Below the pieces are notes generated by a model. That model was not told where the DNA came from, made no database searches, and saw only the letters and a list, made by a program, of their open reading frames with translations. This document shows, one piece after another, positions 32,159-63,343 of a stretch of DNA of 64,000 nt (its first letter is position 1; every line of letters starts with the position of its first letter). Source of the DNA: a virus; IMG/VR virus record IMGVR_UViG_3300009499_000148, positions 32,001-96,000 of that record; one strand, written 5' to 3'. A program made the position numbers and the translations under genes.

Positions 32159-32840
32159 TCACCAGAGCACTTCAAGCTCTCCTTTCATGACACGAGCTAA
32201 AGTTGCTTTCTTTCCTGTGATATGGTCATTCACAACATCATCTCGTTCTCTGTAAGTCCGACGCTTATCGCCGCGGGCTCCACAACCCACCATTTGTTTT
32301 CTATCAGAACTTAACTGTTGTGAAAATGATGTATCATGAATTTCTTTAAGACGTCTTTCAAGCTCATTCCATGCATTTGCTCTATTTTGTGCTTGTGAAC
32401 GCTCGTTTTCAGATCTAACTTGTATTCCAGTCGGACGGTGTGTTAATCTACATGCAGTTGATGTTTTATTTCTGTTTTGGCCGCCCTTACCGCTTCCTCT
32501 CATAAAAGCTTCATCAACATCACTTGGATTAAGTTTAAATGTGCTTTTCGCACCGTCTTTAATAACAGCAACCGTGACAGTTGATGTTTGCACTCTATCT
32601 CTCTTTTCAGTCGGCGGAATTCTTTGCCATCTATGGCCGCCTGTTTCATTCTGAAATGATGCATATGCACCATCGCCCTTCACTTTAAGAATGATTTGCC
32701 CATCATGCTCAAGTCTTTCAATGACGCTAAAGACGCCTCCGAGAACAAAACTTTTCATACATCGCTGCCATATCCTGCGCTAATAATTTTGCATCTTGGC
32801 CGCCTTCTGCCGCCCTAATTTCAACCGCTATGATATCCAT
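32159..32840 (-). CDS. prfA: RF1-type peptide chain release factor lacking domain 1, expressed via +1 programmed frameshift (226 aa)
   Basis: ORF0 32840..32730 MDIIAVEIRAAEGGQDAKLLAQDMAAMYEKFCSRRRL joins the +1 frame SVIERL...ETGGHRWQRIPPTEKRDRVQTS (PxT)...GSGKGGQNRNKT; SD GGGAG before ATG 32840. Confidence 0.88.
32726..32740 (-). promoter_or_regulatory. prfB-like +1 frameshift cassette with amber stop
   Basis: GGAGG-CGT-CTT-TAG-C: internal SD, 3-nt spacer, CUU-U slippery site, stop, then C. Confidence 0.85.
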
Positions 32841-32970
32841 GTTATCTCCCTGTGTCAATGGAACATGTCCCATTGACTCGTCGTATCACTCTAATGCATT
32901 GATTATCTGTAGATGATAATCACATAGTCATAAAAATCGATGACTTGGAGTGTGTCAGGTGAAACAGAAG

Positions 32971-33066
32971 CTAAAATACGGGTGGGTCTTCATCTGAAGA
33001 TGAGAGCGCAATATTCTTTGCATTAACTTGCTTATCTTGTTCAAGTTCATCATACGCTTTCATCAT
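32971..33066 (-). CDS. putative leader peptide (31 aa) ending in UAG
   Basis: MMKAYDELEQDKQVNAKNIALSSSDEDPPVF-TAG, followed by a structured spacer that can pair with the release-factor SD. Confidence 0.5.
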   Translation of the reverse strand: MMKAYDELEQDKQVNAKNIALSSSDEDPPVF

Positions 33067-33115
33067 TAATACAATTTAAGTATAAAGTACGGTAAATAAC
33101 ACTACTGAAAAAAAA

Positions 33116-33407
33116 TGGAGCTGCCGGCGTTTGCAAGCCGGGTCCAAAAGACTTAGAAGCGATGTTCATTCACAGGTTTGGTGGGCTAAGCCCACGTTCC
33201 GTTGAAACAGATATGTGTCATAGCATTAACCCAAGCTAGACGGGTCTTTGCTTCGTTTATCGGGTGTGCAAAGAGACCCGATGAATCACGCCGCGAGGCG
33301 TAGTTCAGATTCGAAATCGTTGCCGATTATCAATGTTGTCTTCTTAAGGGAAAAGACGGCCCACCTGCACATCGTATCATCATCCTCTGTCGAAACTTAT
33401 CAGCCCC
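33116..33407 (-). ncRNA. ssrA: tmRNA
   Basis: 5' GGGGCTG...TTCGAC; 3' GAC-CCGGC/GCCGG T arm and CAGCTCCA with G3-U70; tag frame GNDFESELRLAA-TGA at 33324..33286. Confidence 0.92.
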
Positions 33408-33413
33408 AAAGAA

Positions 33414-33623
33414 TTACTCTGTCGCGGCGGCCTTCTTGGCCTCTGACACCGTCAACTGCACAAGGTCATGGGCCTCCTTCTTTAGGACTCGAAGGCCCTT
33501 GCGAGCTCTGACTCCGGCTGACGAATTACCCTTAGCGTTCTTCAGGACGTCATCCTCAATCGAAGCCACAAGGACCTTGAGTCGTTCCCACTGTTCAACA
33601 ATCACTGCATTAGGTTCCTTCAT
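33414..33623 (-). CDS. histone H1-like Hc1 family protein
   Basis: KNAKGNSSAGVRARKGL; SD GGAGG before ATG 33623. Confidence 0.75.
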   Translation of the reverse strand: MKEPNAVIVEQWERLKVLVASIEDDVLKNAKGNSSAGVRARKGLRVLKKEAHDLVQLTVSEAKKAAATE

Positions 33624-33789
33624 TTTTGCCTCCTGCGTTCTTCTGACGCTTTTCACTATACACCCATGAGCGTGGGTTGTAATGTCTCGTTTTTTAAGCT
33701 CATCTTTTGTTTCATCACTGCGTCTCCATGACGGCCATCTCGACACACATTTAGTTGCAGATGAAAGAACGCTTAAAAACAACTTTTGT

Positions 33790-34758
33790 TCATTTTTTTG
33801 TCTCATATTTCAACTTGTTCATGCTTTCTTTTAGTTCATCACTGATTTTATTAAAGCTTTCTTTTGAAAAATCAGTGATTCTCATCAATGAAAAACCCAA
33901 CTTCTGTGCTAGCTCTGTTTTAAGCTTATCATTCAAAGCGATGCCCATTACTTTTGAGATATGCTTAGCACTAAATTTTTTATCAATGCAATGCTGAACA
34001 TCATGCCAACACTTACCGTCGATTTCAATCAACAAATTAAGTTGTGGAATATAGAAATCGTATAATTTCCATGCTTTACGTCCTGATTGTTTTGTGTATG
34101 CAATCCTATACTGTGCTACGTAATTTATACGTTCATTTAATAATTGTTGTTCAAACATAAATTCTGGAAACGATTTAGCTTTCTTTCGATATAGAGAAAG
34201 CTCTGATTCTGACATGATTTTATTGTCTAAAATCTGCTTAATGACCTTTTCTTTACTTAAAGAAACGATTGATACTATCGTGGGAATTGATGCTTTTTTT
34301 GTTAAAAGTTCGTTTATTTTTAAGACAGTAAGTCTGTCTACTTTAATGAAACGTCCGTTGTTCGGGCCTGCCGTATTACCGAAGTTATTTTCTGGCTTAT
34401 ACGATTTGTTCTTTGCACGTGTTATAAGCATGTTTTTTATGCTTGTTGGATTGAGCATTGGGCTTTTCCAATCTGGATTGTTGGCCCTCCATGTCTCAAC
34501 TTGACGTTTTTTTCTATCATTTTGGTTAACAAGCAACGAACAAATTTTTCCTCTTGTTTCTTTTAACACGTGCTCATCAACACAGTTTTTGAGTATTCGA
34601 CGTATGATACCTCGATTCGTATTATAGCGTTTCGCAATATCATCCATTTTCATTAGATGATTAACGTATAAATCAACGATAACACATACATCATCATCTG
34701 TTAATGTAGATGTAGTCTTACGAAAAAAACGTTTACTGAATATTTCTGTTAGCTTCAT
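33790..34758 (-). CDS. free-standing endonuclease: HTH plus Vsr/DUF559-type nuclease
   Basis: SFPE, QY, YDFY, IEIDGKCWH, ND..K..LA..LGF.LMRI; AT-rich. Confidence 0.8.
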   Translation of the reverse strand: MKLTEIFSKRFFRKTTSTLTDDDVCVIVDLYVNHLMKMDDIAKRYNTNRGIIRRILKNCVDEHVLKETRGKICSLLVNQNDRKKRQVETWRANNPDWKSPMLNPTSIKNMLITRAKNKSYKPENNFGNTAGPNNGRFIKVDRLTVLKINELLTKKASIPTIVSIVSLSKEKVIKQILDNKIMSESELSLYRKKAKSFPEFMFEQQLLNERINYVAQYRIAYTKQSGRKAWKLYDFYIPQLNLLIEIDGKCWHDVQHCIDKKFSAKHISKVMGIALNDKLKTELAQKLGFSLMRITDFSKESFNKISDELKESMNKLKYETKK

Positions 34759-36398
34759 GCTTTCTTTAGTGCTTTTTTGAATGACTCTGGAAACATATTT
34801 TCATGCTGTTGATAGAACTTTTCCCAATTGCTATCCAAAATGTATGTGATTGCGTGGTCTGTTTCATTTCTAATGCTTCTACCAACAGACTGTATGATTG
34901 TTTTTGCAGTCTGATACGGATACCACAGTCTATTTTTTGTCATACGCTTTTTTGTGAGAGGGTCCCCGAGGTATGGAAACGGTATCTTACACAGGATTTG
35001 GAATCGGCTCAGCTCATCCTTGAGGTCAATTCCCTCTGACAGGGATGGTGATAGAAGAATCGTCGGTTTCGATGACGCCGCGTGTTTCGCAATCATTTCT
35101 TCACGATTGAAGCTATCATGCATCAGCAAACGGCTGCTTTTCACGTTTCTCTTGATGTAGCTTGCGATTTTATACGACTGACAGTGGATGATTCCCTTGT
35201 CTCCCTTGTGTTGCTCCATGATTAGCTTCACCATTTCTGCAAGCTTCGGGAGTGTCTGGTCAATCGTCGACTGTGCCATTGCACCTACTGGCGCGTAGTA
35301 AATCGGTCTATTCTCAATCGGAAACGGTGAGTCTATCGACAAAAAATCGACCTCATCTTGTCTGAGGCCGAGCGTGGCACAGAACACGTCCTTATCAACG
35401 ATTGTCGCTGACATCATCAGTACGCGTCTGCCGTACGATAACAGTAGGTCATTCGTGTATGGGCTGACATCGACTGGTTTGAACTCAAGCTTCTTGAGAC
35501 CCTTCTCTTCGCTTTCAACGATGCTCATCACCCAATTGTCATCAGACCACATCTCCATGAACCGATGCATCTTACAGATGTGCTTATCAAGTAGCTCAAT
35601 CTTAGATGATATCATCTCAAAGTCCTTGAGCTTATCCTTCATATTCAACTTCAAAATCATCAACTGTGCCTGCTCTAGATGAGCAACTGCTGCTGGGATG
35701 TAGGTCGTCCTCAGCCACTCAATCATCTTCGTCGGATTCGATGTTGATGGCCATTTCAGCTTAAGCGTATCCTTCGCGAATTTCTCTGAGACAGACGTTT
35801 CAACGAACTTGCTCAGCTCTGATTCAAGGTTATGGCATTCATCTAGCACAAGTAGCTCTCGTGGCTTAAGCTTTCCTCCGTATTTCGTCTCAGCCATGAA
35901 GTATGAATAGTTTGTCGTCCCTTCCTCTGAATCAATAAACAACTTCTTCTGACGCTTGTAGCAACAGTCTGTCGTGCATTTGCGCCAAAATGCGCTTCCC
36001 TGCGTCTCGTTCTTCACAAGTCGTTGGCTTTCACCACATGTGTTTCCAGTGTAAAATTCACATTTGTAGTTGCTCGCCGACTTGATTGACTGAAGCTCAC
36101 CATTCGGTGGCCCAAAATCATGTACGTACTGTTCTTGTAAGACTTTTTGTGTCGTTAAGACGTAGGTACCGGGCACGTAATCATCATTTGGAATGCGAAT
36201 TGAGTTCAAATATCTACCGACAGTTAAGCCAATGGCAGACTTTCCTGTTCCTGTCCCGAGCTCTGCTATTACATAACGTTTGTTGCTTTTAAGAAATGAT
36301 GAAAGAATAAAGTTGATTGCTTTTTCTTGTGTATCTCTGGTAATTGAAAAAGGAAAAAAACGCTTCCATTGATAATCTGTATTCATTTTATTATTCAT
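34755..36398 (-). CDS. DinG/XPD family helicase
   Basis: GTGTGKS, Fe-S cysteines, DECH, EGID, QSVGRSIR. Confidence 0.92.
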   Translation of the reverse strand: MNNKMNTDYQWKRFFPFSITRDTQEKAINFILSSFLKSNKRYVIAELGTGTGKSAIGLTVGRYLNSIRIPNDDYVPGTYVLTTQKVLQEQYVHDFGPPNGELQSIKSASNYKCEFYTGNTCGESQRLVKNETQGSAFWRKCTTDCCYKRQKKLFIDSEEGTTNYSYFMAETKYGGKLKPRELLVLDECHNLESELSKFVETSVSEKFAKDTLKLKWPSTSNPTKMIEWLRTTYIPAAVAHLEQAQLMILKLNMKDKLKDFEMISSKIELLDKHICKMHRFMEMWSDDNWVMSIVESEEKGLKKLEFKPVDVSPYTNDLLLSYGRRVLMMSATIVDKDVFCATLGLRQDEVDFLSIDSPFPIENRPIYYAPVGAMAQSTIDQTLPKLAEMVKLIMEQHKGDKGIIHCQSYKIASYIKRNVKSSRLLMHDSFNREEMIAKHAASSKPTILLSPSLSEGIDLKDELSRFQILCKIPFPYLGDPLTKKRMTKNRLWYPYQTAKTIIQSVGRSIRNETDHAITYILDSNWEKFYQQHENMFPESFKKALKKA

Positions 36399-37231
36399 TT
36401 TTTAGTAAAAGACTTTAAAGAACTTTGTATAAACACAACATCTGCATCTAGCAATGCATCTTCAAAAGACACTTTTTTGAAATCTAGCTCTGTTAAAACA
36501 GAAAATGTTATGTCTTTTGATTCAAAGAACTTTTTAGCTGCTTTCCATTTTTCGCAATCTGGAGATTGATTTTTCTTTACAACCCATGACTGTTTAATTT
36601 CATATACTGATTTAGTTTTTTCTATGTAGAAGTCTATTGTGTATGTTCTTTTTACGCCGTTCAATTCATAATTGACTTTAAAACATTCTTGCTTTATATC
36701 ATTCAATGAAAAGCCATTATTCTCTAGGTGTTTTATAAATGAATACTCTAACAAGCTTCTAAAAAAACGACCCTTATAATAACCTTTGACAGAGCGACCA
36801 CCCTTTTGATAAACTTTACCAAAAGCAGGATTCTTTTCACCTTTTGTGTTATTTGAAAATTTTAATCTAATTTCTCTAGCTTTATCAATTCCGTGGATTT
36901 CTTCTAAAGTTTTTCCACGAAGCGACTTATTGTAATTAACTCGAACAGCTCTAGCAACTTCTTTTTGATGAGTCATATCAGCTGCTAAGATTGCTTTACT
37001 TAAAGTTTGTTTATATTCAGACATTTTTACGTCTGCATATTCTTTACCATGTTTTTCTAAAACATATTCATACCATGGTTTATGCGGGTTGAAACCAATT
37101 TTTCTAATACCTTTTGCATGTTGCCATGCATTAGAACATGATTTATTACAAAATCTTCTTTTATCACAACGCCGAAGACGTCGTTCTTTACCACAAAACT
37201 CACAATTAATTATTTTCCAAAATTTACTCAT
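36395..37231 (-). CDS. free-standing endonuclease: Zn finger plus TnsA-like PD-(D/E)XK domain
   Basis: FCNKSC, RSLLE, YTIDFY, YEIK, LTE; AT-rich. Confidence 0.78.
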   Translation of the reverse strand: MSKFWKIINCEFCGKERRLRRCDKRRFCNKSCSNAWQHAKGIRKIGFNPHKPWYEYVLEKHGKEYADVKMSEYKQTLSKAILAADMTHQKEVARAVRVNYNKSLRGKTLEEIHGIDKAREIRLKFSNNTKGEKNPAFGKVYQKGGRSVKGYYKGRFFRSLLEYSFIKHLENNGFSLNDIKQECFKVNYELNGVKRTYTIDFYIEKTKSVYEIKQSWVVKKNQSPDCEKWKAAKKFFESKDITFSVLTELDFKKVSFEDALLDADVVFIQSSLKSFTKK

Positions 37232-37275
37232 GTTATTAAATATGAGTAAGGAACTGATTGTGGTTCTTATGTTCT

Positions 37276-37884: not shown

Positions 37885-38120
37885 ACCTCAGTGATAAGAG
37901 TGCTTCGTTGTTGGCCAGACTCTAGACGCTCAATCAATGACGTGATGTCTTGAAGATAATCTCGATTCTCAAGCTCTAATGCTAACAAAAAGATGATTTT
38001 AAGCTTTTCCTTTTCAGAGACGCCGAAATCAATCAGTGTTCTAACGATTTGCCTGCATTTAACATTATGCTCTGCGCTATCTTCTTCTGTCGTTGTGCCG
38101 TAATGTTTTACATCAGACAT
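37881..38120 (-). CDS. hypothetical protein
   Basis: Stop overlaps the clpP start. Confidence 0.55.
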   Translation of the reverse strand: MSDVKHYGTTTEEDSAEHNVKCRQIVRTLIDFGVSEKEKLKIIFLLALELENRDYLQDITSLIERLESGQQRSTLITEV

Positions 38121-41123: not shown

Positions 41124-41135
41124 GATAAATCATAA

Positions 41136-41207
41136 CGCGCCCAATGGGATTTGAACCCATGACGTAGCAATTTAGAATTGCGTGTTCTACCGCTGAACTA
41201 TAGGCGC
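41136..41207 (-). tRNA. amber suppressor tRNA, anticodon CUA
   Basis: GCGCCTA/TGGGCGC acceptor, GTTC/GAAC D stem, GCAA-TTCTAAA-TTGC anticodon arm, ATGGG-TTCAAAT-CCCAT T arm. Confidence 0.85.
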
Positions 41208-41551
41208 TAAGCAAACGAATTTCCACAACCACACGTCGTGGATGCATATGGATTAATGAACTTGAATCCAGTTCCTGATAGACCCATGATGTAATCAATC
41301 ATCACTCCCTCTAGATGCATCGCAGATACTGGGTCGATATACACGGTGATTCCATCATGCGTTGATACAATGTCATCATCGTTTTTGTTTGAAAAATCAA
41401 GAACATACTCAAACCCAGCACAACCGCCTCCTCTGATTCCCACACGTAATCCATCACCGACTACGTTCGGTTCTAGCATGAATTCTTTTATTGCAATGAT
41501 AGCCTTCTGCGTGATTGTGATTATCTCATTGCTGTTTTCGCTTTCTTGCAC
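41207..41551 (-). CDS. iscA: HesB/IscA iron-sulfur cluster carrier
   Basis: ITITQKA, GGGCAGFEY, IDY, FINP, TCGCGNSF; probable GTG start at 41551. Confidence 0.88.
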   Translation of the reverse strand: MQESENSNEIITITQKAIIAIKEFMLEPNVVGDGLRVGIRGGGCAGFEYVLDFSNKNDDDIVSTHDGITVYIDPVSAMHLEGVMIDYIMGLSGTGFKFINPYASTTCGCGNSFA

Positions 41552-41855
41552 GTGCCTCTTCCTTATACAATCGATTGAGTTGTTCTTGTCTGTCAAGCTG
41601 TATCGCAGTGAGACGGCGCTTGCTGATATCGTGTCTCTTTTCGGCTGCAACGACAACGTTAGACATACGCTTAAGCATTGCGTCTATTGCTCGTATAACG
41701 TTTATTAGGACAAGCAGAGCACTCTTCTCAAAGCCCCTTGACTGTGCAACATCCTTATACATCGCCTTGAGTGTGCCATCAGCATCAAGCGACGACTGCA
41801 TGCCATCTAACAGCTTACGAAGTGCGTTAGCACGTTCTTGAAATGATGCACTCAC
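41526..41855 (-). CDS. hypothetical protein
   Basis: ORF in operon context. Confidence 0.5.
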   Translation of the reverse strand: MSASFQERANALRKLLDGMQSSLDADGTLKAMYKDVAQSRGFEKSALLVLINVIRAIDAMLKRMSNVVVAAEKRHDISKRRLTAIQLDRQEQLNRLYKEEARARKRKQQ

Positions 41856-45304: not shown

Positions 45305-45829
45305 TCACTGTTTGTTGTCGGGCTGCGCTAACCAATCTTTCCATTCAATTGGAAGGTCATTCCTCCAAATTAGCATAAATCTCATTGAAAAGGGAAGCGT
45401 TTTCGGTTTAACGGGTGTAGAAAGCAGTCGTAATCCTGCTTGGCTCGGTGTCAAAGAGCCTTTCTTTTGATTACAGGCATGGCATGCAATGACGATGTTT
45501 TCCCACTGCGTCTTACCACCAGCACGTCGTGGTACAACATGGTCATACGTTGCTTCATATTTTGCAACGCTTACATTGCAATACTGACAGCGACCCTTAT
45601 CACGCATGTACACGTTTTCACGTGAAAACTTAATGACAGACTTCTTGCGATATCTCGTCAGCTCTCTAACGACTGCTGGCATCTTTATGACGAATGATGC
45701 AGACCTAATGTCTCTGTCCTCGTATGATTGAATGATTTCAACCTTACCCTTACACCACTGCGTGATTGCTCTATCCCACGAGATATGACCAGCGGGCTGA
45801 AAGTTAAAGTCTAAGACAAGCGTTTCCAT
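45305..45829 (-). CDS. HNH endonuclease (McrA-like)
   Basis: TLVLD, RD..RCQYC, TYDHVVPR..GG..WENIVIACHACNQKKG. Confidence 0.9.
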   Translation of the reverse strand: METLVLDFNFQPAGHISWDRAITQWCKGKVEIIQSYEDRDIRSASFVIKMPAVVRELTRYRKKSVIKFSRENVYMRDKGRCQYCNVSVAKYEATYDHVVPRRAGGKTQWENIVIACHACNQKKGSLTPSQAGLRLLSTPVKPKTLPFSMRFMLIWRNDLPIEWKDWLAQPDNKQ

Positions 45830-45956: not shown

Positions 45957-46175
45957 CTATCTGTGGTGATGTCGCATCCTTAATAAAAGACGCTCAGCGA
46001 ACATCGTTAGCAAGCGTTGGTCTGATAATGTTAAACGGCGCCAGATGAGTTGTAGTGTATCATCGATGTCAGCGATTTCATACCGCTTAAGCTCAGATGC
46101 GTTGTCATGTCTATTAAGTAGAGAAATCACGCGACGTATCAATTTTTTTGAGATGATGATATCTCTGTTAAGCAT
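45957..46175 (-). CDS. hypothetical protein
   Basis: Small ORF ending TAG TAG. Confidence 0.45.
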   Translation of the reverse strand: MLNRDIIISKKLIRRVISLLNRHDNASELKRYEIADIDDTLQLIWRRLTLSDQRLLTMFAERLLLRMRHHHR

Positions 46176-55405: not shown

Positions 55406-55476
55406 AGCTGATGTCGTGAATCGAACACGAATCACTTTCTTACCAAGAAAGTACTCTACCGTTGAGATACATCAGC
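55406..55476 (-). tRNA. tRNA-Thr(GGT)
   Basis: Cloverleaf; CTTTC-TTGGTAA-GAAAG. Confidence 0.85.
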
Positions 55477-55479
55477 GCG

Positions 55480-56034
55480 TCATTTTGATAACATTGTGAT
55501 GGCTGCATCAACGTTCGATGATGCAAATTCACGAGCATCTGCTTCATGAGGAGCGTCCCAATAACCGTATCTGCGCTCCCAAAAAGTGCATATGTCGTCC
55601 CAGCTTGTCTCATAAAGTGCAATCGGGTCATCGGTGATTGACGGCGGTAGCTTCTTACTCTTGACAAACTCACTTCTAAATGACATATCGTTGTCCCAGC
55701 TCATGCGCTGGTTGTAGTGCTGAATTTCGTGAAGAACATCCTCGATGCGCTCACGCATCGAAACATCTGGGTCATCGTTCAACATCAGCTCAGGATGAAC
55801 GTACAGCGCTCCGAGCTGTGAGACATCACGATGAAACCCGCCCGTGGTTCGCAGTCTTTTTCCAGAGAACGCCGAGGTGAATGAGCCTCCCACGTGCTTA
55901 AGCTTCGGAGACCAGCGCCCCTGTGCAAATGCACGTATAAGCTTTTTTACGTCAGCATCAGTCAGGCGTCTGTTATCATCATGACCATCTTCTTCTTTTA
56001 GAAGCTTAATAAGCTCAAGCAGCTTTTTCACCAT
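55480..56034 (-). CDS. zincin-like HExxH protein
   Basis: LHEIQHYNQ...PHEADAR. Confidence 0.65.
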   Translation of the reverse strand: MVKKLLELIKLLKEEDGHDDNRRLTDADVKKLIRAFAQGRWSPKLKHVGGSFTSAFSGKRLRTTGGFHRDVSQLGALYVHPELMLNDDPDVSMRERIEDVLHEIQHYNQRMSWDNDMSFRSEFVKSKKLPPSITDDPIALYETSWDDICTFWERRYGYWDAPHEADAREFASSNVDAAITMLSK

Positions 56035-56042
56035 GATAGATA

Positions 56043-56119
56043 CACCCCCGACAGGAGTCGAACCTGTATGTGTCCAATTAGCCTTTCAAGCGAGTAGAAA
56101 TCGCAGGGCATACGAGGGT
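56043..56119 (-). ncRNA. non-canonical tRNA-like RNA, TCT (Arg) loop, no conventional D arm
   Basis: ACCCTCG/CGGGGGT acceptor, canonical T arm, GCGA-TTTCTAC-TCGC hairpin. Confidence 0.6.
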
Positions 56120-56123
56120 TCAA

Positions 56124-56195
56124 AGCTCACGCCGGGAATTGAACCCGGGCCAACTGCTTACGAAACAGTCGTTCTACCGTCTAAACTACATGAGC
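56124..56195 (-). tRNA. tRNA-Thr(CGT)
   Basis: ACTGT-TTCGTAA-GCAGT. Confidence 0.88.
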
Positions 56196-56453
56196 ATCAT
56201 ATTATCATGCTGCGCTGACTTATGATTTTGTGTTTGCTGATACCAGCGCACTGCTTTTCTAAGAAAGAATGTTGTGAAATGTATGTATGAGTTTTTAATC
56301 GAAATACACATGTGGGCCGTGATATGACCATCAGTCTAACTGAGCCGCACGAAAGCCTGTATATCGATTGCTCTTTATTGTTAAAAACGCATGCTGATAT
56401 GAATTTTCTTCCTCGCTTGAGGATGCGACAGTCCATCATCATTCCATTAAGTT

Positions 56454-56813
56454 TCACGAGATTTTTCCATTTTCGTCTTTCAGTCGAAGGTGCGAACCGT
56501 ATAGCTTAAGAGAGCCGAAGAACTCAGGCCATTTTTCGCGTGGTTTGAACCCGATTGCAACCTCAACATCATCGATTGCATCCTCTGTCATGATAAGAAA
56601 GTCTCCGTACTTTTTAGACTTTTCAAACTGTTCGTCTGATACGATACACGTCACCTTTCTAAAGTGCTTACTCTGTACCCATTCCTGCATGACTGGGTCA
56701 TCCTTGAACTTTAAAAACGTAGCAAGGCTTGTGTGTCCGATTGCATTTGCACCCAGTCCTATCGGAATAGAACTTTTGACGAGGATGTACATCTTAAGCT
56801 TCTGTTCTGACAC
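56454..56813 (-). CDS. peptidyl-tRNA hydrolase Pth2-like protein
   Basis: KMYILV, G...N.IGH, W....FRKVTC, AIGFKPR, LKLY. Confidence 0.7.
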   Translation of the reverse strand: MSEQKLKMYILVKSSIPIGLGANAIGHTSLATFLKFKDDPVMQEWVQSKHFRKVTCIVSDEQFEKSKKYGDFLIMTEDAIDDVEVAIGFKPREKWPEFFGSLKLYGSHLRLKDENGKIS

Positions 56814-56866
56814 AAATGTTCCTTTATTCTTCGGTAAAAAATCCGTCCAATCATCACCCTACATCA

Positions 56867-57085
56867 CTACCTCCAAAATAGCTCCCACTCTTTTTTATCA
56901 ACCTTATCTGCGAGCTTACAATATTTTTTTAGAATCCGTGTGTATTGTCGCCCTGGATTAGTGCTTTCATTGAACCAATGCTTTGGATACCTTTTTTTGA
57001 TATCTTCAAGCTTGATTTCAAGCTTATCAAGCCTTGCAAACATTGTGTTCAATCGCATAATCTCTATTGTGCGATATTTTGCCAT
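56867..57085 (-). CDS. hypothetical protein
   Basis: Small basic ORF ending TAG TGA. Confidence 0.45.
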   Translation of the reverse strand: MAKYRTIEIMRLNTMFARLDKLEIKLEDIKKRYPKHWFNESTNPGRQYTRILKKYCKLADKVDKKEWELFWR

Positions 57086-57089
57086 ACAA

Positions 57090-57176
57090 CGGAGTGTGAG
57101 AGATTCGAACTCCCGATACCCTTTCGGGTATGGCGGTTTTCAAAACCGCTGCCTTCAGCCACTCGGCCAACACTCC
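57090..57176 (-). tRNA. tRNA-Ser(TGA)
   Basis: Long variable arm; GCGGT-TTTGAAA-ACCGC. Confidence 0.92.
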
Positions 57177-57182
57177 AACAAA

Positions 57183-57254
57183 TCGCGGGTTTGCGACTTG
57201 AACGCAAAACTACGGATTATGAGTCCGTTAAGATACCAATTTCTCCAACCCGCA
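57183..57254 (-). tRNA. tRNA-Met(CAT), initiator-like acceptor
   Basis: ACGGA-CTCATAA-TCCGT; U1-G72. Confidence 0.8.
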
Positions 57255-57311
57255 ATGTTTAATGATAATACCATTCAACATATGATGTTTTCAACACCAT
57301 CGCTACAAACA

Positions 57312-57383
57312 TTCGAGCGGAGGGTAGCGCGCCCCCTTTTCACGGTTATCAGCCGTGCGTTATAACTTCTCTACTACGCTCGA
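57312..57383 (-). tRNA. tRNA-Ile(GAT), atypical T loop
   Basis: CACGG-CTGATAA-CCGTG. Confidence 0.72.
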
Positions 57384-57400
57384 ATAATAAGACAATTGAT

Positions 57401-57438
57401 AAAACAATCCACCGGATGTCGCCACCCGATGGATTGTT
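57401..57438 (-). terminator. intrinsic terminator-like hairpin inside the tRNA array
   Basis: AACAATCCATCGG...CCGGTGGATTGTT followed by TT. Confidence 0.55.
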
Positions 57439-57471
57439 CAATGGTCGTCGATTTGATGTCGTTTCTACTGA

Positions 57472-57909
57472 TTAGGCTGAGCCAGCAGCAATCGTAATTG
57501 AGCCTGAGCCACCGAGGATGCACCAGTTTGCGCCGTCAGACATCAGACAGACTGACGAACCAGCAATCGCAGGAAACGTGATAGAGCTTCCATGGCTACC
57601 CGTGATGTTTCCAGCAGGGTTGCTGTATCTCTCAACAATCGTGTTGCCAGCATCACCAGATGACGTGATTACGTGTGCGCTTGGTGATGTTGAGCGAAAG
57701 ATGAACATGCTTCCAGGTGATGTTGAGACTGCCGGTAGCGTCATCGTCAGCACACCCTGTGATGCAGAGATAACCGTGACACCAGCATCATTACCACCCA
57801 ATGTCGCTGACGCAGTGCGTGTGTTTGATTGCACGGCAGAGATTGAACCCTCGAAGCCGCTTCCAGGAACTATGATTACGCCTTGGTCTGTGATACGTGT
57901 TTTAACCAT
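57472..57909 (-). CDS. Gly/Ser/Thr-rich beta protein, possibly virion-associated
   Basis: TMTLPA...G..F.F, L.SDG.NW pattern. Confidence 0.55.
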   Translation of the reverse strand: MVKTRITDQGVIIVPGSGFEGSISAVQSNTRTASATLGGNDAGVTVISASQGVLTMTLPAVSTSPGSMFIFRSTSPSAHVITSSGDAGNTIVERYSNPAGNITGSHGSSITFPAIAGSSVCLMSDGANWCILGGSGSITIAAGSA

Positions 57910-57955
57910 GAGCATAAGTATCGTTGCTTTTCGGAAAACACGCTGAAATATGCAA

Positions 57956-58029
57956 AGATGTCGGTTGGACTCGCACCAACTATGACGGCATTTGCAGTGC
58001 CGTGACTCGTCTGCTTCATCTTCGACACC
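57956..58029 (-). tRNA. tRNA-Cys(GCA)
   Basis: CGGCA-CTGCAAA-TGCCG; U73. Confidence 0.8.
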
Positions 58030-58033
58030 ATGA

Positions 58034-58104
58034 TGCTCCCATGGAGAATCGAACTCCAAATCCCCGATTGAAAATCGAGTGTTTTTCCTTTGAACTATGG
58101 GAGC
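58034..58104 (-). tRNA. tRNA-Glu(TTC)
   Basis: CTCGA-TTTTCAA-TCGGG. Confidence 0.85.
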
Positions 58105-58119
58105 ATTTACTTATAGAGC

Positions 58120-58821
58120 ATGAAATCATTAAATGCAAAAAAACCATCAATCGTTATCGTTGATTACGACGTTGGAATTCCTCGCACTGAGCTTGTGATT
58201 GTTGCACGTGCGCTTCAGAAACAAGCAAACCAACATTTCGCACAACCCCCACCACATGGATACGGCATCGGATGCACTGTTCGTGTCGCGTCAAAGCGCT
58301 CTCCTCCAAAAGAGCATGAGTGGTTGATGGGTCTGTTTAAGGATGCTGACCAACCTGGAGCTCTCGGCTACCACGATGAAACATCATCAGGAATGCCTCT
58401 CATGCGTATCTTTCCTCTTTTGGCACCCAACGAACCATGGTCAATCACAGCATCTCATGAGCTTCTTGAAACATTAGCTGACCCAAACATCTGTAGATGT
58501 GCCCAGGGCCCTGATGGCCGGATATGGGCTTATGAGGTCTGCGACGGTGTAGAGGCAGACAGCTACGAGATAGATGGTGTTAGGGTCTCTAATTTTGGCC
58601 TACCTCCATACTTTGAGCCCCCTCCTGTACTAACTGGTGTGAGATTCGACTACATGGGTCTTTGCACACATCCGTATGAGACTAGAAAAGGAGGCTACAA
58701 CCAATATTGGGATGGTCGTGGATGGCATCAGGTGCAAAACTTTCAACGCCATGCAAGGCAGTGGCTTAATGAAACGGGTCGTGGTGCACGTCGTAGAAAG
58801 AAGACGAAAGCAAACGACTGA
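58120..58821 (+). CDS. zinc metalloprotease-like protein
   Basis: GALGYH, SHELLETLADP, EVCD. Confidence 0.65.
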   Translation: MKSLNAKKPSIVIVDYDVGIPRTELVIVARALQKQANQHFAQPPPHGYGIGCTVRVASKRSPPKEHEWLMGLFKDADQPGALGYHDETSSGMPLMRIFPLLAPNEPWSITASHELLETLADPNICRCAQGPDGRIWAYEVCDGVEADSYEIDGVRVSNFGLPPYFEPPPVLTGVRFDYMGLCTHPYETRKGGYNQYWDGRGWHQVQNFQRHARQWLNETGRGARRRKKTKAND

Positions 58822-58884
58822 GATAGACTTGAACTATCATCCCAACGCTCCAAAGGCGTGTGTAATCCATTATACTATCAGTCG
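58814..58884 (-). tRNA. tRNA-Gln(TTG)
   Basis: ACGC-CTTTGGA-GCGT; CGACTGA/TCAGTCG acceptor. Confidence 0.7.
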
Positions 58885-58888
58885 ATGT

Positions 58889-58959
58889 TTGAGCCACTAG
58901 GACTTGAACCTAGACAGAAGCAGTCAGAGTGCAGCATGCTACCATTACATCATAGCTCA
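58889..58959 (-). tRNA. tRNA-Gln(CTG)
   Basis: GCA-CTCTGAC-TGC; U1-A72. Confidence 0.8.
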
Positions 58960-58962
58960 TCA

Positions 58963-59032
58963 TGGAGTGTATGGGCACTGCCCCCACCGCGTCCGGATTG
59001 CAAATCCAGTCTCTGCCCTGTGCAGACACCCC
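58963..59032 (-). tRNA. tRNA-Ala(TGC), short D arm
   Basis: G3-U70, CTGGA-TTTGCAA-TCCGG. Confidence 0.75.
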
Positions 59033-59034
59033 AT

Positions 59035-60768
59035 TCATTCTATCGCAGCGAACAACGAATCTTCCATTTTTGCTTTCACTGACCGAACGTACGCCTGCGT
59101 CTCAGCAAATGGAGGAACTCCATCGTATCGCTCAACGTTTGCCTGCCCAGCATTATACGCGGCCGCGGCAAGCTCGTAATCATTCTCAAACCTATCCAAA
59201 AGCTGTCGTAGATGCCTAGTACCAGCATCGATCGCCTGTGCTGGGTCAAATGCATTACGAAGTCCAAGACCACGGGCTGTCCTCGGCATGATTTGCATTA
59301 TTCCCTGTGCTCCAACAGACGACACGGCTCTAGGATTGTAGTTCGACTCTGTTCGAATGATTGCATCAATGAATGCTGCAGGAACCTCATACCTCTTCGA
59401 TGCGCGCTGAACAAGCCTATGCAATTCACGACGTGAATACGTTCGTGTCGGTGTTGTCGTCTGCGATACAGAAGATGTCTCAGTCGGTTGTGCATCATCA
59501 ATATTGATAGATGTCTCAGGTGCAACAATCGGTTCTTTATGCTTTTTTAGTGTGTGCTTTTGCGCTAAATTGCTGCCACCCACTGCCTGATGTTTTTGAT
59601 TGTAATCATCAAGCGCGCCCAACCCGACCAATGATGCAACGAGAGCAGTGTTAAGCTTTTTACCCTCTTCATACGATAATCTCTTCGGGTGTGCTTTGAC
59701 ATCAATACCCCTTGCCCTGAGAAGCTCTATTCTGCTCTTTAGGTCCTTCAATGGGCTCAACTCTTCATGACCCTGATGGGCCGGCTGCCCGAAGCTCCAA
59801 TCAAGCTTCTTCAGCTTCTTTAAAGCCTCCTTCGGAGAATCAGATGCATTCCACACTGCAACCATCTCCATCTCAGACGGAGTAAGCTTCTGCTTGTCTG
59901 ATGCTGCAACGTGTTGTTCAGCATCATTCTCGTCGTCGAATGACATCATGGGCATGTCCTCAGTGTCATGCACATCTTCAGGCTGCTCAAACTCGACGGG
60001 CTCTTCATCTTGAATGAATTCTTCAGGTGGCTCAAATGCATCATACGTGTCTAATGCAACGTCAGGATGTTCATCCTGAACAACATCATCAGGAACGACG
60101 ATGGGTTCATCGTTGAGCTTCCATCGTGTTGCACGCCGGTCGGGCAAATCTCTTATGAAATCGTCTCCAAGCTGTTTCTTTAGCTTCCACGCCATCATTT
60201 TGATGAACTCTGGCGTCAATGTAGGGTATGCATCGTTGATGTTTTTTACAGCGTCGCGTCTGTCTTCAGAGCTATCCCAAATCTCTTTAAATTCATCAGG
60301 CGTAGGCGTATCTGTTCTCTTCGGACGACCCCTACCTGCCTTCATTATGGGTTGCTGATTTTTCATGGCACGTTCAGCATTGATTCTAGAGACCAACTTC
60401 GAAAGCTGCATATATGTTATGTTGAGACTCTTCGCAGCAGCAGATACGTTTCCACCCGAAGCTAGCAGCGCCGACTCGATATCATGAATGGAAATCTCAC
60501 GCTCTTGCTTCTGTGATGTGGGCGACATCTTCGCTAGCATTCTCCAAGGAGCATCCCTATCCTTGAAAGATGGAAGCCTCTGTGAGTCATTTGTCTGTTT
60601 GTTGTTGTACTGTTGCGCGCGCATCGCAAGATTGTGGTAGCTTAGTCCCATCTCATCAGCTAGCTCTTGCAGCGTTTTTCCTGCCTGCCATGCAGCCCTA
60701 TATGCTTTACCAAACTCGTCTAAATCCCATTTCATCGCTTCATTTAGAAACGAACGCAAGATACGCAT
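59035..60768 (-). CDS. multidomain protein: HTH-like repeats, acidic linker, C-terminal SLT lytic transglycosylase
   Basis: AIIRTESNYNPRAVS..GAQGIMQIMP, AAYNAG, PPFAETQAYV; Fis-like GGNVSAAAKSLNI. Confidence 0.85.
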   Translation of the reverse strand: MRILRSFLNEAMKWDLDEFGKAYRAAWQAGKTLQELADEMGLSYHNLAMRAQQYNNKQTNDSQRLPSFKDRDAPWRMLAKMSPTSQKQEREISIHDIESALLASGGNVSAAAKSLNITYMQLSKLVSRINAERAMKNQQPIMKAGRGRPKRTDTPTPDEFKEIWDSSEDRRDAVKNINDAYPTLTPEFIKMMAWKLKKQLGDDFIRDLPDRRATRWKLNDEPIVVPDDVVQDEHPDVALDTYDAFEPPEEFIQDEEPVEFEQPEDVHDTEDMPMMSFDDENDAEQHVAASDKQKLTPSEMEMVAVWNASDSPKEALKKLKKLDWSFGQPAHQGHEELSPLKDLKSRIELLRARGIDVKAHPKRLSYEEGKKLNTALVASLVGLGALDDYNQKHQAVGGSNLAQKHTLKKHKEPIVAPETSINIDDAQPTETSSVSQTTTPTRTYSRRELHRLVQRASKRYEVPAAFIDAIIRTESNYNPRAVSSVGAQGIMQIMPRTARGLGLRNAFDPAQAIDAGTRHLRQLLDRFENDYELAAAAYNAGQANVERYDGVPPFAETQAYVRSVKAKMEDSLFAAIE

Positions 60769-60814
60769 GCTAATATATATCGCGTCGTCAATAGAAATTG
60801 ACAACCTTAAGTAA

Positions 60815-60897
60815 TGCTTAGAGCGGGACTTGAACCCGCACGCCATCAATGACAACAACTTCTAAGGCTGCCGCGTCTACCATTCCGCCACCCAAGC
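60815..60897 (-). tRNA. tRNA-Leu(TAG)
   Basis: GCAGC-CTTAGAA-GTTGT; long variable arm. Confidence 0.88.
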
Positions 60898-60900
60898 ATA

Positions 60901-60982
60901 TGCTCCGGGAGGGATTTGAACCCTCATGACATCAGTCGGCGCGTTTTGAATGCGCTGTGTCTGCCTATTCCACCACCAGAGC
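60901..60982 (-). tRNA. tRNA-Leu(CAA)
   Basis: GCGC(A)-TTCAAAA-(C)GCGC; long variable arm. Confidence 0.88.
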
Positions 60983-60988
60983 AATCGA

Positions 60989-61068
60989 TGGACCCAGACG
61001 GACTCGAACCGTCAAGCATTGCAGTCCCGTGTGGGATTTCAATACAACGCCCAGACCAACCTGGGCCC
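60989..61068 (-). ncRNA. anticodon-less tRNA-like RNA with alanine identity elements
   Basis: GGGCCCA/TGGGTCC-A (G3-U70, A73), canonical T arm, unpaired D region, GCGTTGTA/TGCAATGC helix. Confidence 0.6.
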
Positions 61069-61074
61069 AAAAAG

Positions 61075-61145
61075 CACGGTGTGAAGGACTCGAACCCTCA
61101 CAATACGAGTTGGAAACGTATATGCTACCATTACATCAACACCGT
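61075..61145 (-). tRNA. tRNA-Trp(CCA)
   Basis: TACG(T)-TTCCAAC-(T)CGTA; G73. Confidence 0.8.
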
Positions 61146-61153
61146 ATGCGACA

Positions 61154-61226
61154 TGCTTCAGATGGGACTCGAACCCATACGACCCGGCTTCTCGAACCGG
61201 TGACTTTACCATTTGTCCACCGAAGC
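61154..61226 (-). tRNA. tRNA-Leu(GAG), short variable region, C33
   Basis: CCGGT-TCGAGAA-GCCGG. Confidence 0.65.
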
Positions 61227-61229
61227 AAA

Positions 61230-61300
61230 TGGGACCTAAGGGATTTGAACCCTGACCAACGGTGTGTAATACCGATATGCTACCGTTACACCAAGGCCCC
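61230..61300 (-). tRNA. tRNA-Val(TAC)
   Basis: CGGT-ATTACAC-ACCG. Confidence 0.82.
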
Positions 61301-61392
61301 GACACAAACAGAAGCATGGCTTAACCTTCCAGCCATCAGAGGACATGGGGATGCTCAATCGGATGAGCCTCTTTGAGATGCTGTCCCAACAA

Positions 61393-61466
61393 TCGAGGCG
61401 GAGGGACTTGAACCCACACGATACCCTGCTCCCAAAGCAGGTGGCCTACCATTGGCCCACACCTCG
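61393..61466 (-). tRNA. tRNA-Pro(TGG)
   Basis: CCTGC-TTTGGGA-GCAGG. Confidence 0.88.
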
Positions 61467-61471
61467 GTAAA

Positions 61472-61544
61472 TCAGAATGGGTGGAATTGCACCACCACGT
61501 GATGGCCCCGAACCACCCATGCTGCTGTTGAACATCACATCCTG
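61472..61544 (-). tRNA. tRNA-Pro(CGG)
   Basis: GGTGG-TTCGGGG-CCATC. Confidence 0.8.
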
Positions 61545-61547
61545 AAA

Positions 61548-61619
61548 CTCCAAGGCTCAGATTTGAACTGAGATAATCTCCGTTAACAGCGGAGCGCACT
61601 GCCGTTGTGCTACCTTGGA
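61548..61619 (-). tRNA. tRNA-Asn(GTT)
   Basis: CTCCG-CTGTTAA-CGGAG. Confidence 0.88.
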
Positions 61620-61622
61620 ATA

Positions 61623-61695
61623 TGGTCTCATTCGGAATCGCACCGAACTCCCGTGCTTTTCAGACACATGCTTTCTCTATGTAAGCTAAGAGACC
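61623..61695 (-). tRNA. tRNA-Phe(GAA) with 6-nt anticodon loop
   Basis: TGTGT-CTGAAA-GCACG. Confidence 0.6.
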
Positions 61696-61697
61696 GT

Positions 61698-61771
61698 TGC
61701 GCCCGAGTGGACTCGAACCACTAACCTTCTCATTAAAAGTGAGCTGCTGCTACCGATTGAGCTACGAACGC
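61698..61771 (-). tRNA. tRNA-Lys(TTT)
   Basis: CTCA-CTTTTAA-TGAG. Confidence 0.85.
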
Positions 61772-61777
61772 ATAAAA

Positions 61778-61847
61778 CGAAGGGCCCAGATTTGACTCCA
61801 GAACTTCATCGAATCCCGATGATATGATGCTATTTCACCAGCCCTTC
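61778..61847 (-). pseudogene. tRNA-like element with aberrant anticodon and T loops
   Basis: Perfect GAAGGGC/GCCCTTC acceptor; TCATCG-GGATT-CGATGA hairpin. Confidence 0.5.
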
Positions 61848-61854
61848 AGATTAA

Positions 61855-61924
61855 AGCCGTGGGTATGAATTGAACATACGACCTATCGATTAATATCGAT
61901 TGCTCTACACTGAGCTACCACGGC
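61855..61924 (-). tRNA. tRNA-like gene with 6-nt anticodon loop (TATTAA)
   Basis: Intact acceptor, D and T arms; ATCGA-TATTAA-TCGAT. Confidence 0.6.
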
Positions 61925-61927
61925 AAG

Positions 61928-62011
61928 TGGAGACGGATGGATTTGAACCAATCACAGTCATAATGACGCTTGATTTACAATCAAGTGAGCTCACCATTGC
62001 TCAGCATCTCC
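61928..62011 (-). tRNA. tRNA-Tyr(GTA)
   Basis: CTTGA-TTGTAAA-TCAAG; long variable arm. Confidence 0.88.
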
Positions 62012-62048
62012 ATACAACCATTATACCAAACGTATGAATAAAATACAC

Positions 62049-62121
62049 TGCGGGCGGAGGGACTCGAACCCTCACCATTAGTTTGGAAAACTAACATGCT
62101 ACCATTGGACACTACGCACGC
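62049..62121 (-). tRNA. tRNA-Gly(TCC)
   Basis: TTAGT-TTTCCAA-ACTAA. Confidence 0.85.
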
Positions 62122-62127
62122 AACTGA

Positions 62128-62216
62128 CGGAGAGCAGTGGGCTTGCACCACATACGCATAAAGCGCACCATCTGTTTAGCAAGCAGCGCCGAATCTAGAT
62201 TTTCGATTTACTCTCC
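62128..62216 (-). tRNA. tRNA-Ser(GCT)
   Basis: Loop TTGCTAA, long variable arm, G73. Confidence 0.75.
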
Positions 62217-62220
62217 AAAA

Positions 62221-62291
62221 CACCACATGGGAGAATTGCACTCCCGCGAACGACTGGACAGGTCGTCATGCTGCTACTACATCAATGCGGT
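62221..62291 (-). tRNA. tRNA-Asp(GTC)
   Basis: ACGAC-CTGTCCA-GTCGT. Confidence 0.82.
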
Positions 62292-62294
62292 AAG

Positions 62295-62366
62295 GGTATC
62301 CGACGGGTGTTGCACCCGTGTCTTTCGAGCCACAGTCGAATGCTCTACTGTTGAGCTACGGACACC
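62295..62366 (-). tRNA. tRNA-His(GTG)
   Basis: TTCGA-CTGTGGC-TCGAA; G-1/C73. Confidence 0.85.
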
Positions 62367-62369
62367 AAA

Positions 62370-62927
62370 TTAAAGTGTTAAACGCTTGGGTGCATTTCTT
62401 CGAAAACAGTGTGTGAAATAAAATTCAGGCATCCAATTTCGAATCTTTTTTGCACAAAAAACATGATTTTCATTTGTTAATTTACAAACTTTTTCTAGCC
62501 AACCGATTTTTCCAAAATCAATAGACTTATCAAGAAATGCTTGATTAATTAAATTACAAAAATTGTTTTTGTATTCAAGCTGTTCTTTTATAATTTTTTG
62601 ATGAACTAGCTTTTTTTCTTCATATAAAGCTTGTCCTTTTCTAATTCTTAAAGATGTTTTTTTATTTGTTCTGCCCCAATTTCTAAAATTGGGTGTTAAT
62701 GCATGACAGTTTGGACACAAAACTCTAAGATTATCTCGATTTTCGTTTTTGTGATTACCATCTATATGGTCAATTTCTAAAATTATACCACCACAATTTC
62801 TGCGTTTATTATAACCACATTCACTACAGCTATAGTTTGCTTCCTTAAAAAGGAACTGTCGCTTTTTCTTTGCAGACAACATCTCAAAAGGAACTTCATC
62901 CCAATTAAAATTTTTCCATTGATTCAT
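62370..62927 (-). CDS. HNH homing endonuclease inserted in the tRNA array
   Basis: CSECG, LEIDHIDGN..N...NLRVLCPNCH; very AT-rich. Confidence 0.88.
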   Translation of the reverse strand: MNQWKNFNWDEVPFEMLSAKKKRQFLFKEANYSCSECGYNKRRNCGGIILEIDHIDGNHKNENRDNLRVLCPNCHALTPNFRNWGRTNKKTSLRIRKGQALYEEKKLVHQKIIKEQLEYKNNFCNLINQAFLDKSIDFGKIGWLEKVCKLTNENHVFCAKKIRNWMPEFYFTHCFRRNAPKRLTL

Positions 62928-62964
62928 ACAATGGTCAATTATTGTGATAAAGTGTGATTGTAAA

Positions 62965-63038
62965 AGCTGATGATTGGATTCGAACCAACGACCTGAGCAT
63001 TACAAATGCTCTGCTACTACCAACTGAGCTACATCAGC
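62965..63038 (-). tRNA. tRNA-Thr(TGT)
   Basis: GAGCA-TTTGTAA-TGCTC. Confidence 0.88.
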
Positions 63039-63040
63039 AA

Positions 63041-63110
63041 CATCGTCGGCGGGACTTGCACCACGCATCCTCTCAAAGAATTTTGAGAACTTTGCTTAAG
63101 CTACGACGAT
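63041..63110 (-). pseudogene. tRNA-like element without a canonical anticodon loop
   Basis: Perfect ATCGTCG/CGACGAT acceptor; TCTCAAA-AATTC-TTTGAGA hairpin. Confidence 0.55.
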
Positions 63111-63184
63111 AGTCTTCACGAATTCTTTTGTCAAACGACAACGATGATGACGGCATTACCCAGTCATTTATCTAAAGAAATCTG

Positions 63185-63343
63185 TTATTCAATTTTCAAA
63201 CAGCCCAACCACCCTCTCAGGCGGCTTATCGGCTGTCTGAGAGGAACTGTCTATGTTGTCGTATACCCGTTTGCAAAGAGACTATCTGATGTCAACGCTT
63301 CATTAGAAGCATTCTGCCATCTATGTAGTCCTTTGGGTTGCAC
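63185..63343 (-). promoter_or_regulatory. tRNA-array leader: 30-codon ORF ending in UAG, long stem, boxA-like element
   Basis: GAGG-6 nt-GTG ORF 63343..63251; TAGACAGTTC pairs with GGGCTGTTTG; GCTGTTTGAAAATTGAATA. Confidence 0.55.

Follow-up and report, generated by a model that had tools for sequence, protein, structure and literature searches.

A predicted programmed +1 frameshift in the gene for a short RF1-type release factor of a jumbo phage

We analysed a 64,000-nucleotide (nt) stretch of viral DNA, hereafter the window, which comprises bases 32001-96000 of the 106,059-bp IMG/VR virus contig IMGVR_UViG_3300009499_000148. The contig is 29% complete by CheckV; from this completeness the source genome is a jumbo phage of roughly 350 kb, and our genome-wide statements cover this 106-kb part only. 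Nearly all genes of the window lie on the minus strand. The stretch studied here (32159-63343) is part of a translation-support island that holds a tRNA array, a transfer-messenger RNA (tmRNA), a tRNA with anticodon CUA (tRNA(CUA)), a short RF1-type release factor and a weak PTH2-like open reading frame (ORF). RF1/RF2, tmRNA and tRNAs are already known from huge phages (Al-Shayeb et al. 2020, PMC7162821). A preliminary description of this DNA had singled out five features centred on amber (UAG) codons and proposed that slow termination at UAG switches on the release factor, the tRNA operon and an HNH nuclease. We find that the frameshift in the RF1-type gene is probably the only one of the five that is a recoding signal. 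The gene and its cassette are laid out as follows.

32727..32840, minus strand: RF1-type gene, zero-frame part, with ATG at 32840, 37 sense codons and TAG at 32729-32727 (Pfam PCRF positions 95-134; NCBIfam prfA 28-31 bits on 37 amino acids)
32726..32740, minus strand: +1 frameshift cassette GGAGG-CGT-CTT-TAG-C (from sequence; site shared with relatives)
32159..32728, minus strand: RF1-type gene, +1-frame part, 189 amino acids with a PPT decoding motif and GGQ (Pfam PCRF positions 152-194 plus the RF-1 domain)

The zero-frame part opens at an ATG preceded by GGGAGA, and its N terminus reads M-D-I-I-A-V-E-I-R-A-A-E-G-G; relatives begin M-x-x-V-I-I-E-I-R-A-A-E-G-G. At its end stands the cassette, in which GGAGG (32740-32736), resembling a Shine-Dalgarno (SD) sequence, lies 3 nt upstream of CTT (32732-32730), separated from it by the spacer CGT and followed by TAG (32729-32727) and C. 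When CTTT is read as one step, the two parts join into a 226-amino-acid protein without a stop. Zero-frame read-through of the TAG would meet a TGA two codons later. On the PCRF profile the frameshift site falls between positions 134 and 152, in domain 2; 0.06 occurrences of the 14-nt cassette motif would be expected in the window, which has one. The earlier claim of a frameshift at CUU-UAG-C is borne out by the cassette and by RF1 homology that continues across the two frames, and it is the only feature of the five to rise above chance.

Several comparisons place the factor with RF1. The +1-frame part scores 175 bits with the NCBIfam prfA model and 119 with prfB, and comparison with PDB structures gives 122 bits for RF1 and 75 for RF2. 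Both R-I-P-P-T-E, with the PxT tripeptide, and S-G-K-G-G-Q, with the GGQ motif, fall in the +1-frame part, and Q-R-I-P-P-T...T-S aligns to the RF1 decoding loop, which reads A or G at the third stop position. The factor lacks domain 1: it has 226 amino acids rather than about 360, the prfA match begins at model position ~106, and 175 bits falls short of the equivalog cut-off of 400-423. Because domain 1 is missing and the score lies far under that cut-off, the predicted protein is an RF1-type factor and not a full prfA. PrfH is a natural class-I factor of similar build, with about 200 amino acids and domains 2-4 only, but the prfH model scores 71 bits here, under both its 166-bit cut-off and the prfA score.

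We retrieved 40 related loci from huge-phage contigs, which represent 34 distinct loci, or 35 with the one in this window. A +1 shift at CTT-stop is required in 24 of the 35, and CTT precedes the stop in all 24. The site lies at the same codon, 29 codons past the start of the R-A-A-E-G-G motif, in 21 of these frameshift loci, mostly with GGAGG-N3 upstream; GGAGG or a near variant is present in most relatives. The other three shift elsewhere: two low-GC phages at codon 45, one of which (L027) has an extra in-frame TGA before the shift, and one locus (L023) at codon 39. In-frame TGA is found in nine of the 35 loci, two of which also have an in-frame TAG, and the remaining two comprise one gene with an in-frame TAG alone and one contiguous gene. 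A survey of a 5.8-billion-protein collection returned 1,343 matches at E <= 1e-20. Among the 120 nearest cluster representatives, ~67 start with the +1-frame footprint G-G-V-F-x and 15 are contiguous; the remainder were called too short to judge. Because the same split recurs in most related huge-phage genes, the split RF1-type gene is best read as a programmed frameshift of the prfB kind rather than as an error. We found no paper on a frameshift in a phage or bacterial RF1-type gene.

Some relatives carry other kinds of internal stop. The low-GC loci (L006/L008 and L027) have their +1 site as TGC-CTT-TAG-C without an SD, 16 codons downstream of the usual site, which points to the gate having arisen twice, independently, in this gene. 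In three contigs from different samples (L022, L029 and L030; about 3100-3130), the RF1-like gene runs in one frame through a TGA and, eight codons on, a TAG; in L031 and L034 the second internal stop is TGA instead of TAG. The contig of the latter (G006), with one TGA stop in 83 ORFs, is probably TGA-recoded. Four further distinct RF1-like genes (L018, L032, L036 and L040) have an in-frame GGY-TGA at nearly the same codon, the TGA following a Gly codon 38-39 codons past the start of the R-A-A-E-G-G motif. In the contigs of such GGY-TGA genes TGA closes many ORFs (23 of 81 in G008, 32 of 84 in G009 and 33 of 61 in G010), and these four genes may use regulated read-through rather than an altered code.

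The identity of the stop at the frameshift site bears directly on what the device could sense. Across the 24 distinct frameshift loci the stop is UGA in 19 and UAG in five. For the ~67 footprints we called the stop from the residue after the footprint (D/E for UGA, S/R for UAG, N/K for UAA), correcting by eye four rows with a second F; this gave about 55 UGA, 9 UAG and 3 UAA. The UAG loci do not group together on a maximum-likelihood tree and require four changes, UAG having been gained at least three to four times. The closest relative (P0002), 95% identical, reads L-G-G-V-F-D against L-G-G-V-F-S here, while the next ones (P0003/P0004) stand at 67-68% identity. Judged by its +1-frame peptide, P0002 would have CTT-TGA-Y, with a zero frame ending ...R-R-R-L-TGA, and the UAG form in the present phage is a recent variant. 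The preliminary description had counted free variation of leader stops among homologs against its proposal; at the frameshift site the stop does vary, being UGA in most relatives and UAA in some.

The PPT loop is common to all family members, including those with UGA at the site. Since most sites carry UGA and all members have this loop, most relatives would present a codon that their encoded factor should not read. Here the UAG pairs with an RF1-type decoding loop, as a factor-specific stop would, but 19 of the 24 related loci carry UGA with the same loop. The stop is interchangeable in evolution, with UGA far commoner than UAG and UAA rarest, and this interchangeability argues for a device that reads slow termination generally or sets a fixed yield, not for a dedicated UAG sensor. 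It seems to respond to slow termination of any kind, to host RF2 where the stop is UGA, or else to do no more than set the yield. The present phage has UAG in the A site, a codon within the expected range of an RF1-type factor, and feedback of the factor on its own synthesis, alongside host RF1, is therefore plausible here. A rule tying the frameshift stop to genome-wide stop usage was considered and none holds: this phage has a UAG site yet is TGA-rich, and genomes with UAG sites differ among themselves, G003 having no TGA stops and G002 using TAG often.

By analogy with prfB, a ribosome would read 37 codons and then pause, its P site holding peptidyl-tRNA-Leu on CUU and its A site presenting UAG-C. 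Pairing of the GGAGG, which lies 3 nt upstream, with the anti-SD of 16S rRNA would push the ribosome forward. With ample RF1 activity, from host RF1 plus the phage factor, the chain would be released as a 37-amino-acid peptide; with the A site left empty, the tRNA would re-pair on UUU and the 226-amino-acid factor would be made from the +1 frame. tRNA(CUA) would compete too at this UAG, with read-through ending two codons on at the TGA, so that a suppressor at the site would lower, not raise, factor synthesis.

Upstream of the release factor lie a tmRNA and a short ORF, the second of the five amber-centred features.

33113..33407, minus strand: phage tmRNA with tag A-N-D-F-E-S-E-L-R-L-A-A (ANDFESELRLAA) (Rfam RF00023, 51.1 bits, gathering score 47)
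32971..33066, minus strand: 31-codon ORF between the tmRNA and the release-factor gene, ending in TAG (ORF call; no SD)

The tmRNA was overlooked by ARAGORN and by the whole-window Rfam run and was revealed by a short-stretch search. It has no encoded CCA and is followed by a T-run. The 31-codon ORF and its TAG are present as the preliminary description stated, but the anti-SD strand that it placed there does not hold up. No SD-like run occurs in the 16 nt preceding the ATG, the anti-SD pairing amounts to 6 bp of which two are G-U, and the whole spacer between tmRNA and release factor folds like its shuffles (z score -1.06). Contigs of a ~98% relative from a wastewater library break at 33108 and 32997, a weak hint that the spacer is variable; no contig of this RNA library covers the release-factor gene. 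Most likely this is a chance ORF.

The third feature, an 'HNH leader', belongs to the following pair.

45957..46175, minus strand: gene for a 72-amino-acid conserved small protein (the 'HNH leader'), ending in TAG TAG (ORF call; two homologs)
45305..45829, minus strand: HNH endonuclease (Pfam HNH_5 3e-14, HNH 2.5e-13)

The 72-codon ORF begins 9 nt past the stop of the preceding gene. Its two homologs (P0123 and P0124) have the same length of exactly 72 amino acids and share 83% and 81% identity with it, including long invariant blocks; an IMG/VR scan with the ORF found no relatives. The ORF does end in TAG, but neither a leader role nor a stem receives support: the stretch between it and the HNH gene has a non-significant local fold (z -0.46), and the peptide, expected to drift, is conserved at equal length. 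Conservation at 81-83% identity is the reverse of what a drifting leader peptide would show and marks the 'HNH leader' as an ordinary gene for a conserved small protein.

The fourth feature lies at the 5' end of the tRNA array, a region with two strong hairpins.

55406..63038, minus strand: tRNA array with 23 ARAGORN calls, interleaved with HNH and other ORFs (ARAGORN, Rfam)
63041..63110, minus strand: extra tRNA-like gene heading the array, with a 6-nt anticodon loop and a short D arm (Rfam tRNA 34.9 bits, gathering score 29; no ARAGORN call)
63196..63240, minus strand: second strong hairpin of the 5' region (minimum free energy (MFE) -27.6 kcal/mol, z -4.05)
63247..63360, minus strand: long imperfect hairpin enclosing the whole 30-codon 'leader' ORF, from GTG at 63343 to TAG at 63253-63251 (MFE -36.0 kcal/mol, z -4.72, 0 of 200 shuffles as good)

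The leader ORF has a GAGGA SD 5 nt before its GTG; a 30-codon open frame arises by chance in about one in four cases per frame. What the preliminary description reported here is largely present, namely an SD-bearing ORF, its TAG and strong structure, but the architecture of an attenuator is not. In the minimum-energy fold the SD and start of the ORF pair with its Thr codons and TAG in one long hairpin. We found no alternative hairpin pair centred on the leader stop, no terminator-like site in 62900-63500 and no Rfam family matching the two hairpins at 63196-63360. The boxA-like element matches E. coli rrn boxA at 9 of 12 positions by eye. An IMG/VR scan with the trypsin-like neighbour of the leader yielded no relatives. 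Most likely the 5' region is structural RNA, for example processing or stability hairpins. The tRNA-like gene stands directly ahead of tRNA-Thr(TGT); a scan of JGI metagenomes with a 20-mer from it matched five contigs, none similar in the flanks, as by chance. A second odd-loop tRNA of the array is the one that ARAGORN calls 'tRNA-??? (tt)' at 61855-61924.

The fifth feature is a tRNA of amber-suppressor type that abuts an upstream gene.

41136..41207, minus strand: tRNA with anticodon CUA (amber suppressor type), a canonical cloverleaf with G73 (ARAGORN; Rfam tRNA 63.9 bits)
41207..41656, minus strand: Fe-S cluster (IscA-like) ORF; the G of its TAG is also G1 of tRNA(CUA) (Pfam PF01521, 3.4e-17)

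That the tRNA starts on the G of the IscA-like TAG is correct, as the two sets of coordinates share that base, and the arrangement is in all probability ordinary tight packing. No clear parent of tRNA(CUA) emerged among phage tRNAs, the best identity being 49 of 72 positions. Across the 106 kb we saw no sign of TAG as a sense codon: reading TAG as sense moves coding coverage from 0.864 (standard code) to 0.881 at equal ORF number, and in-frame ORF pairs separated by TAG show no excess in this 29% of the genome.

The stop codons of the contig set the chance expectation for amber-ended leaders. Its 106 ORFs of at least 100 amino acids end in TGA (68), TAA (27) or TAG (11, about 10%), so the earlier statement that long genes mostly end in TGA or TAA is right (95 of 106). 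TAG is not unusually rare; it closes 16 of 135 ORFs of at least 70 amino acids, and its share among stops is ordinary. Of the 56 short ORFs of 8-69 codons that lie between genes on the coding strand, 19 end in TAG, and three TAG-ended 'leaders' picked afterwards therefore carry no weight.

On these results, a regulon in which ribosome dwell time at UAG co-ordinately induces the phage RF1, the tRNA operon and the HNH nuclease through amber-ended leaders and RNA structures is highly improbable, and the evidence leaves such a multi-operon circuit unsupported. All five features do exist in the sequence, the release-factor site does offer UAG to an RF1-type factor, and the tRNA-array leader has an SD and sits within highly significant structure. 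The stop at the release-factor site nevertheless varies, being apparently UGA even in the 95% relative, the 'HNH leader' is a conserved 72-amino-acid protein, the ORF upstream of the release factor lacks both an SD and a significant fold, the tRNA-array leader lacks a terminator/antiterminator pair, short ORFs ending in TAG are usual, and TAG has an ordinary frequency among stops. Of the three outputs once attributed to slow UAG termination, the RF1-type factor is supported; the tRNA operon and the HNH nuclease are not. A second alternative is a two-part amber switch, in which tRNA(CUA) and the frameshift-gated factor would together set how UAG is read, for example by timing read-through or recoding of late genes located in the 70% of the genome not seen here; through the UAG of the frameshift site, factor synthesis would be coupled to the suppressor/RF1 balance. 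In the island, 8.3 kb separate tRNA(CUA) from the release-factor gene; near the RF1-like genes of G008, G009, G010 and L031 we likewise found tRNA(CUA) but no suppressor of another type; and phage 'code-change modules' of suppressor tRNA plus release factor have been described (bioRxiv 10.1101/2021.08.26.457843). We nonetheless judge this switch improbable: no TAG recoding signal appears in 106 kb that include baseplate and tail genes, the suppressor tRNAs of different phages are dissimilar in sequence, no suppressor tRNA is found in the UAG-type relatives G001, G003 and the complete 197.7-kb G002 (22 tRNAs), and the RF1-like genes with a nearby tRNA(CUA) in G008, G009, G010 and L031 carry UGA, not UAG. 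Closeness of a suppressor to the release-factor gene by itself means little because that gene usually lies inside a tRNA island. We likewise doubt that the change from UGA to UAG relative to the 95% relative was adaptive and tied to the amber-suppressor tRNA. If it was, a single UAG would be contested by the suppressor, host RF1 and the phage factor, and factor synthesis would track amber reading; the result would be a self-tuning controller of stop-codon meaning that might also time genes outside the 106 kb.

Alternatively, the frameshift could fix an expression ratio or guard against over-production, with no sensing involved: any weak stop after CUU-U would serve and the UAG here would be neutral. 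The occurrence of UGA, UAG and UAA at the site agrees with this, as do the 15 of 120 nearest representatives that are contiguous and hence ungated; an RF1-type factor should be unable to read the UGA of most relatives, so self-feedback would not be a family-wide rule. We regard this explanation as a serious one, if on the unlikely side, as a stop in the A site is inherently sensitive to release-factor concentration, as established for prfB, and UAA, which both host factors read, is the rarest stop (about 3 of 67), which suggests selection for a stop read by a single factor. As a whole, the evidence is probably best explained by the RF1-type frameshift as the sole recoding signal in an ordinary island, with the other four features as look-alikes. 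Several points weigh against this explanation. Frameshifting and feedback at the cassette are both deduced from sequence, and the analysis covers 29% of the genome. TAG ends 34% of short ORFs but makes up 22% of non-coding stop triplets on the coding strand, the ORFs not being independent of one another, and missing support for the three 'leaders' is no disproof of them. Some regulatory role of the tRNA-array leader is possible, as it has a good SD and very significant structure around it, and its Thr-Thr-Thr-amber end precedes an array in which three of the genes are tRNA-Thr. A functional link of tRNA(CUA) with the release factor is also possible, given that the two are neighbours in at least five of about 35 contigs (G000, G008, G009, G010 and L031), among which we saw no UGA or UAA suppressor tRNA near an RF1-like gene.

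The frameshift-gated short RF1-type factor is apparently an unpublished variant of a known mechanism. Like bacterial prfB (RF2), with its SD-N3-CUU-UGA-C, the phage gene has an SD-like GGAGG, a 3-nt spacer, CUU-U and a stop with C after it, and its +1 frame encodes the remainder of a class-I factor. Unlike prfB, it is of RF1 type and its stop is UAG here; the site lies in domain 2 of a protein without domain 1, whereas the prfB site lies in domain 1 (codon ~26); and in most phage relatives the stop, UGA, is one that the encoded factor should not read. Textbook examples of a programmed frameshift that senses termination capacity are, to our knowledge, limited to RF2. A 2025 survey of 8,164 prfB motifs in >12,000 genomes reports no TAG and no programmed frameshift in prfA (PMC12421855). 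The nearest viral precedent is the class-I release factor of Mimivirus/Megavirus (Jeudy et al. 2012, PMC3521657), likewise a virus factor needing recoding at internal stops, the Mimivirus gene requiring frameshift and read-through. The phage relative L027 similarly combines an in-frame stop with a frameshift. The Mimivirus factor is, however, of the eukaryotic/archaeal eRF1 type, from an amoeba virus, and has no sequence relation to the bacterial-type RF1 here. Recoded huge phages show the same island mix of release factors, tmRNA, tRNAs and suppressors (Borges et al. 10.1101/2021.08.26.457843; Al-Shayeb et al. PMC7162821), but this contig has no stop-codon recoding signal, and neither of those two papers describes a frameshift in the factor gene or contains the word 'frameshift'. 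The ORF ahead of the tRNA array resembles the leader peptides of trp, his and thr attenuation in its SD, its three Thr codons and the tRNA-Thr genes downstream; it differs in lacking a U-run terminator and alternative hairpins and in having its start and stop paired in one hairpin.

With its interchangeable stops and a cassette re-invented at another position, the huge-phage RF1-type family offers a natural experiment on what such a device senses. Gene callers split these frameshifted genes, which matters for annotation. An amber-sensing multi-operon regulon, if true, would be a new kind of circuit.

Elsewhere in the island lie an RNA ligase and a phosphoesterase, ClpP, an AAA+ ATPase, a chaperonin-like protein and several homing-type nucleases. 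Two further loci are as follows.

46185-48009, minus strand: RNA ligase (PF09414) adjoining a calcineurin-like phosphoesterase (Pfam)
33414-33806, minus strand: ORF encoding a histone H1-like Hc1 domain, immediately 5' of the tmRNA (PF07432, 3.6e-09)

The ligase and phosphoesterase look like a tRNA-repair pair, which would suit an island that sustains translation during host attack. A megablast search of the release-factor/tmRNA region against GenBank phages returned no match, and the best tblastn matches are unannotated huge phages of Al-Shayeb et al. at <=47% identity. Within window positions 32100-46300, identical pieces of this phage occur in contigs from a marine-sediment run and a soil run, beyond the subsurface source sample, and a ~98% relative is present in a wastewater metatranscriptome (RNA) library.

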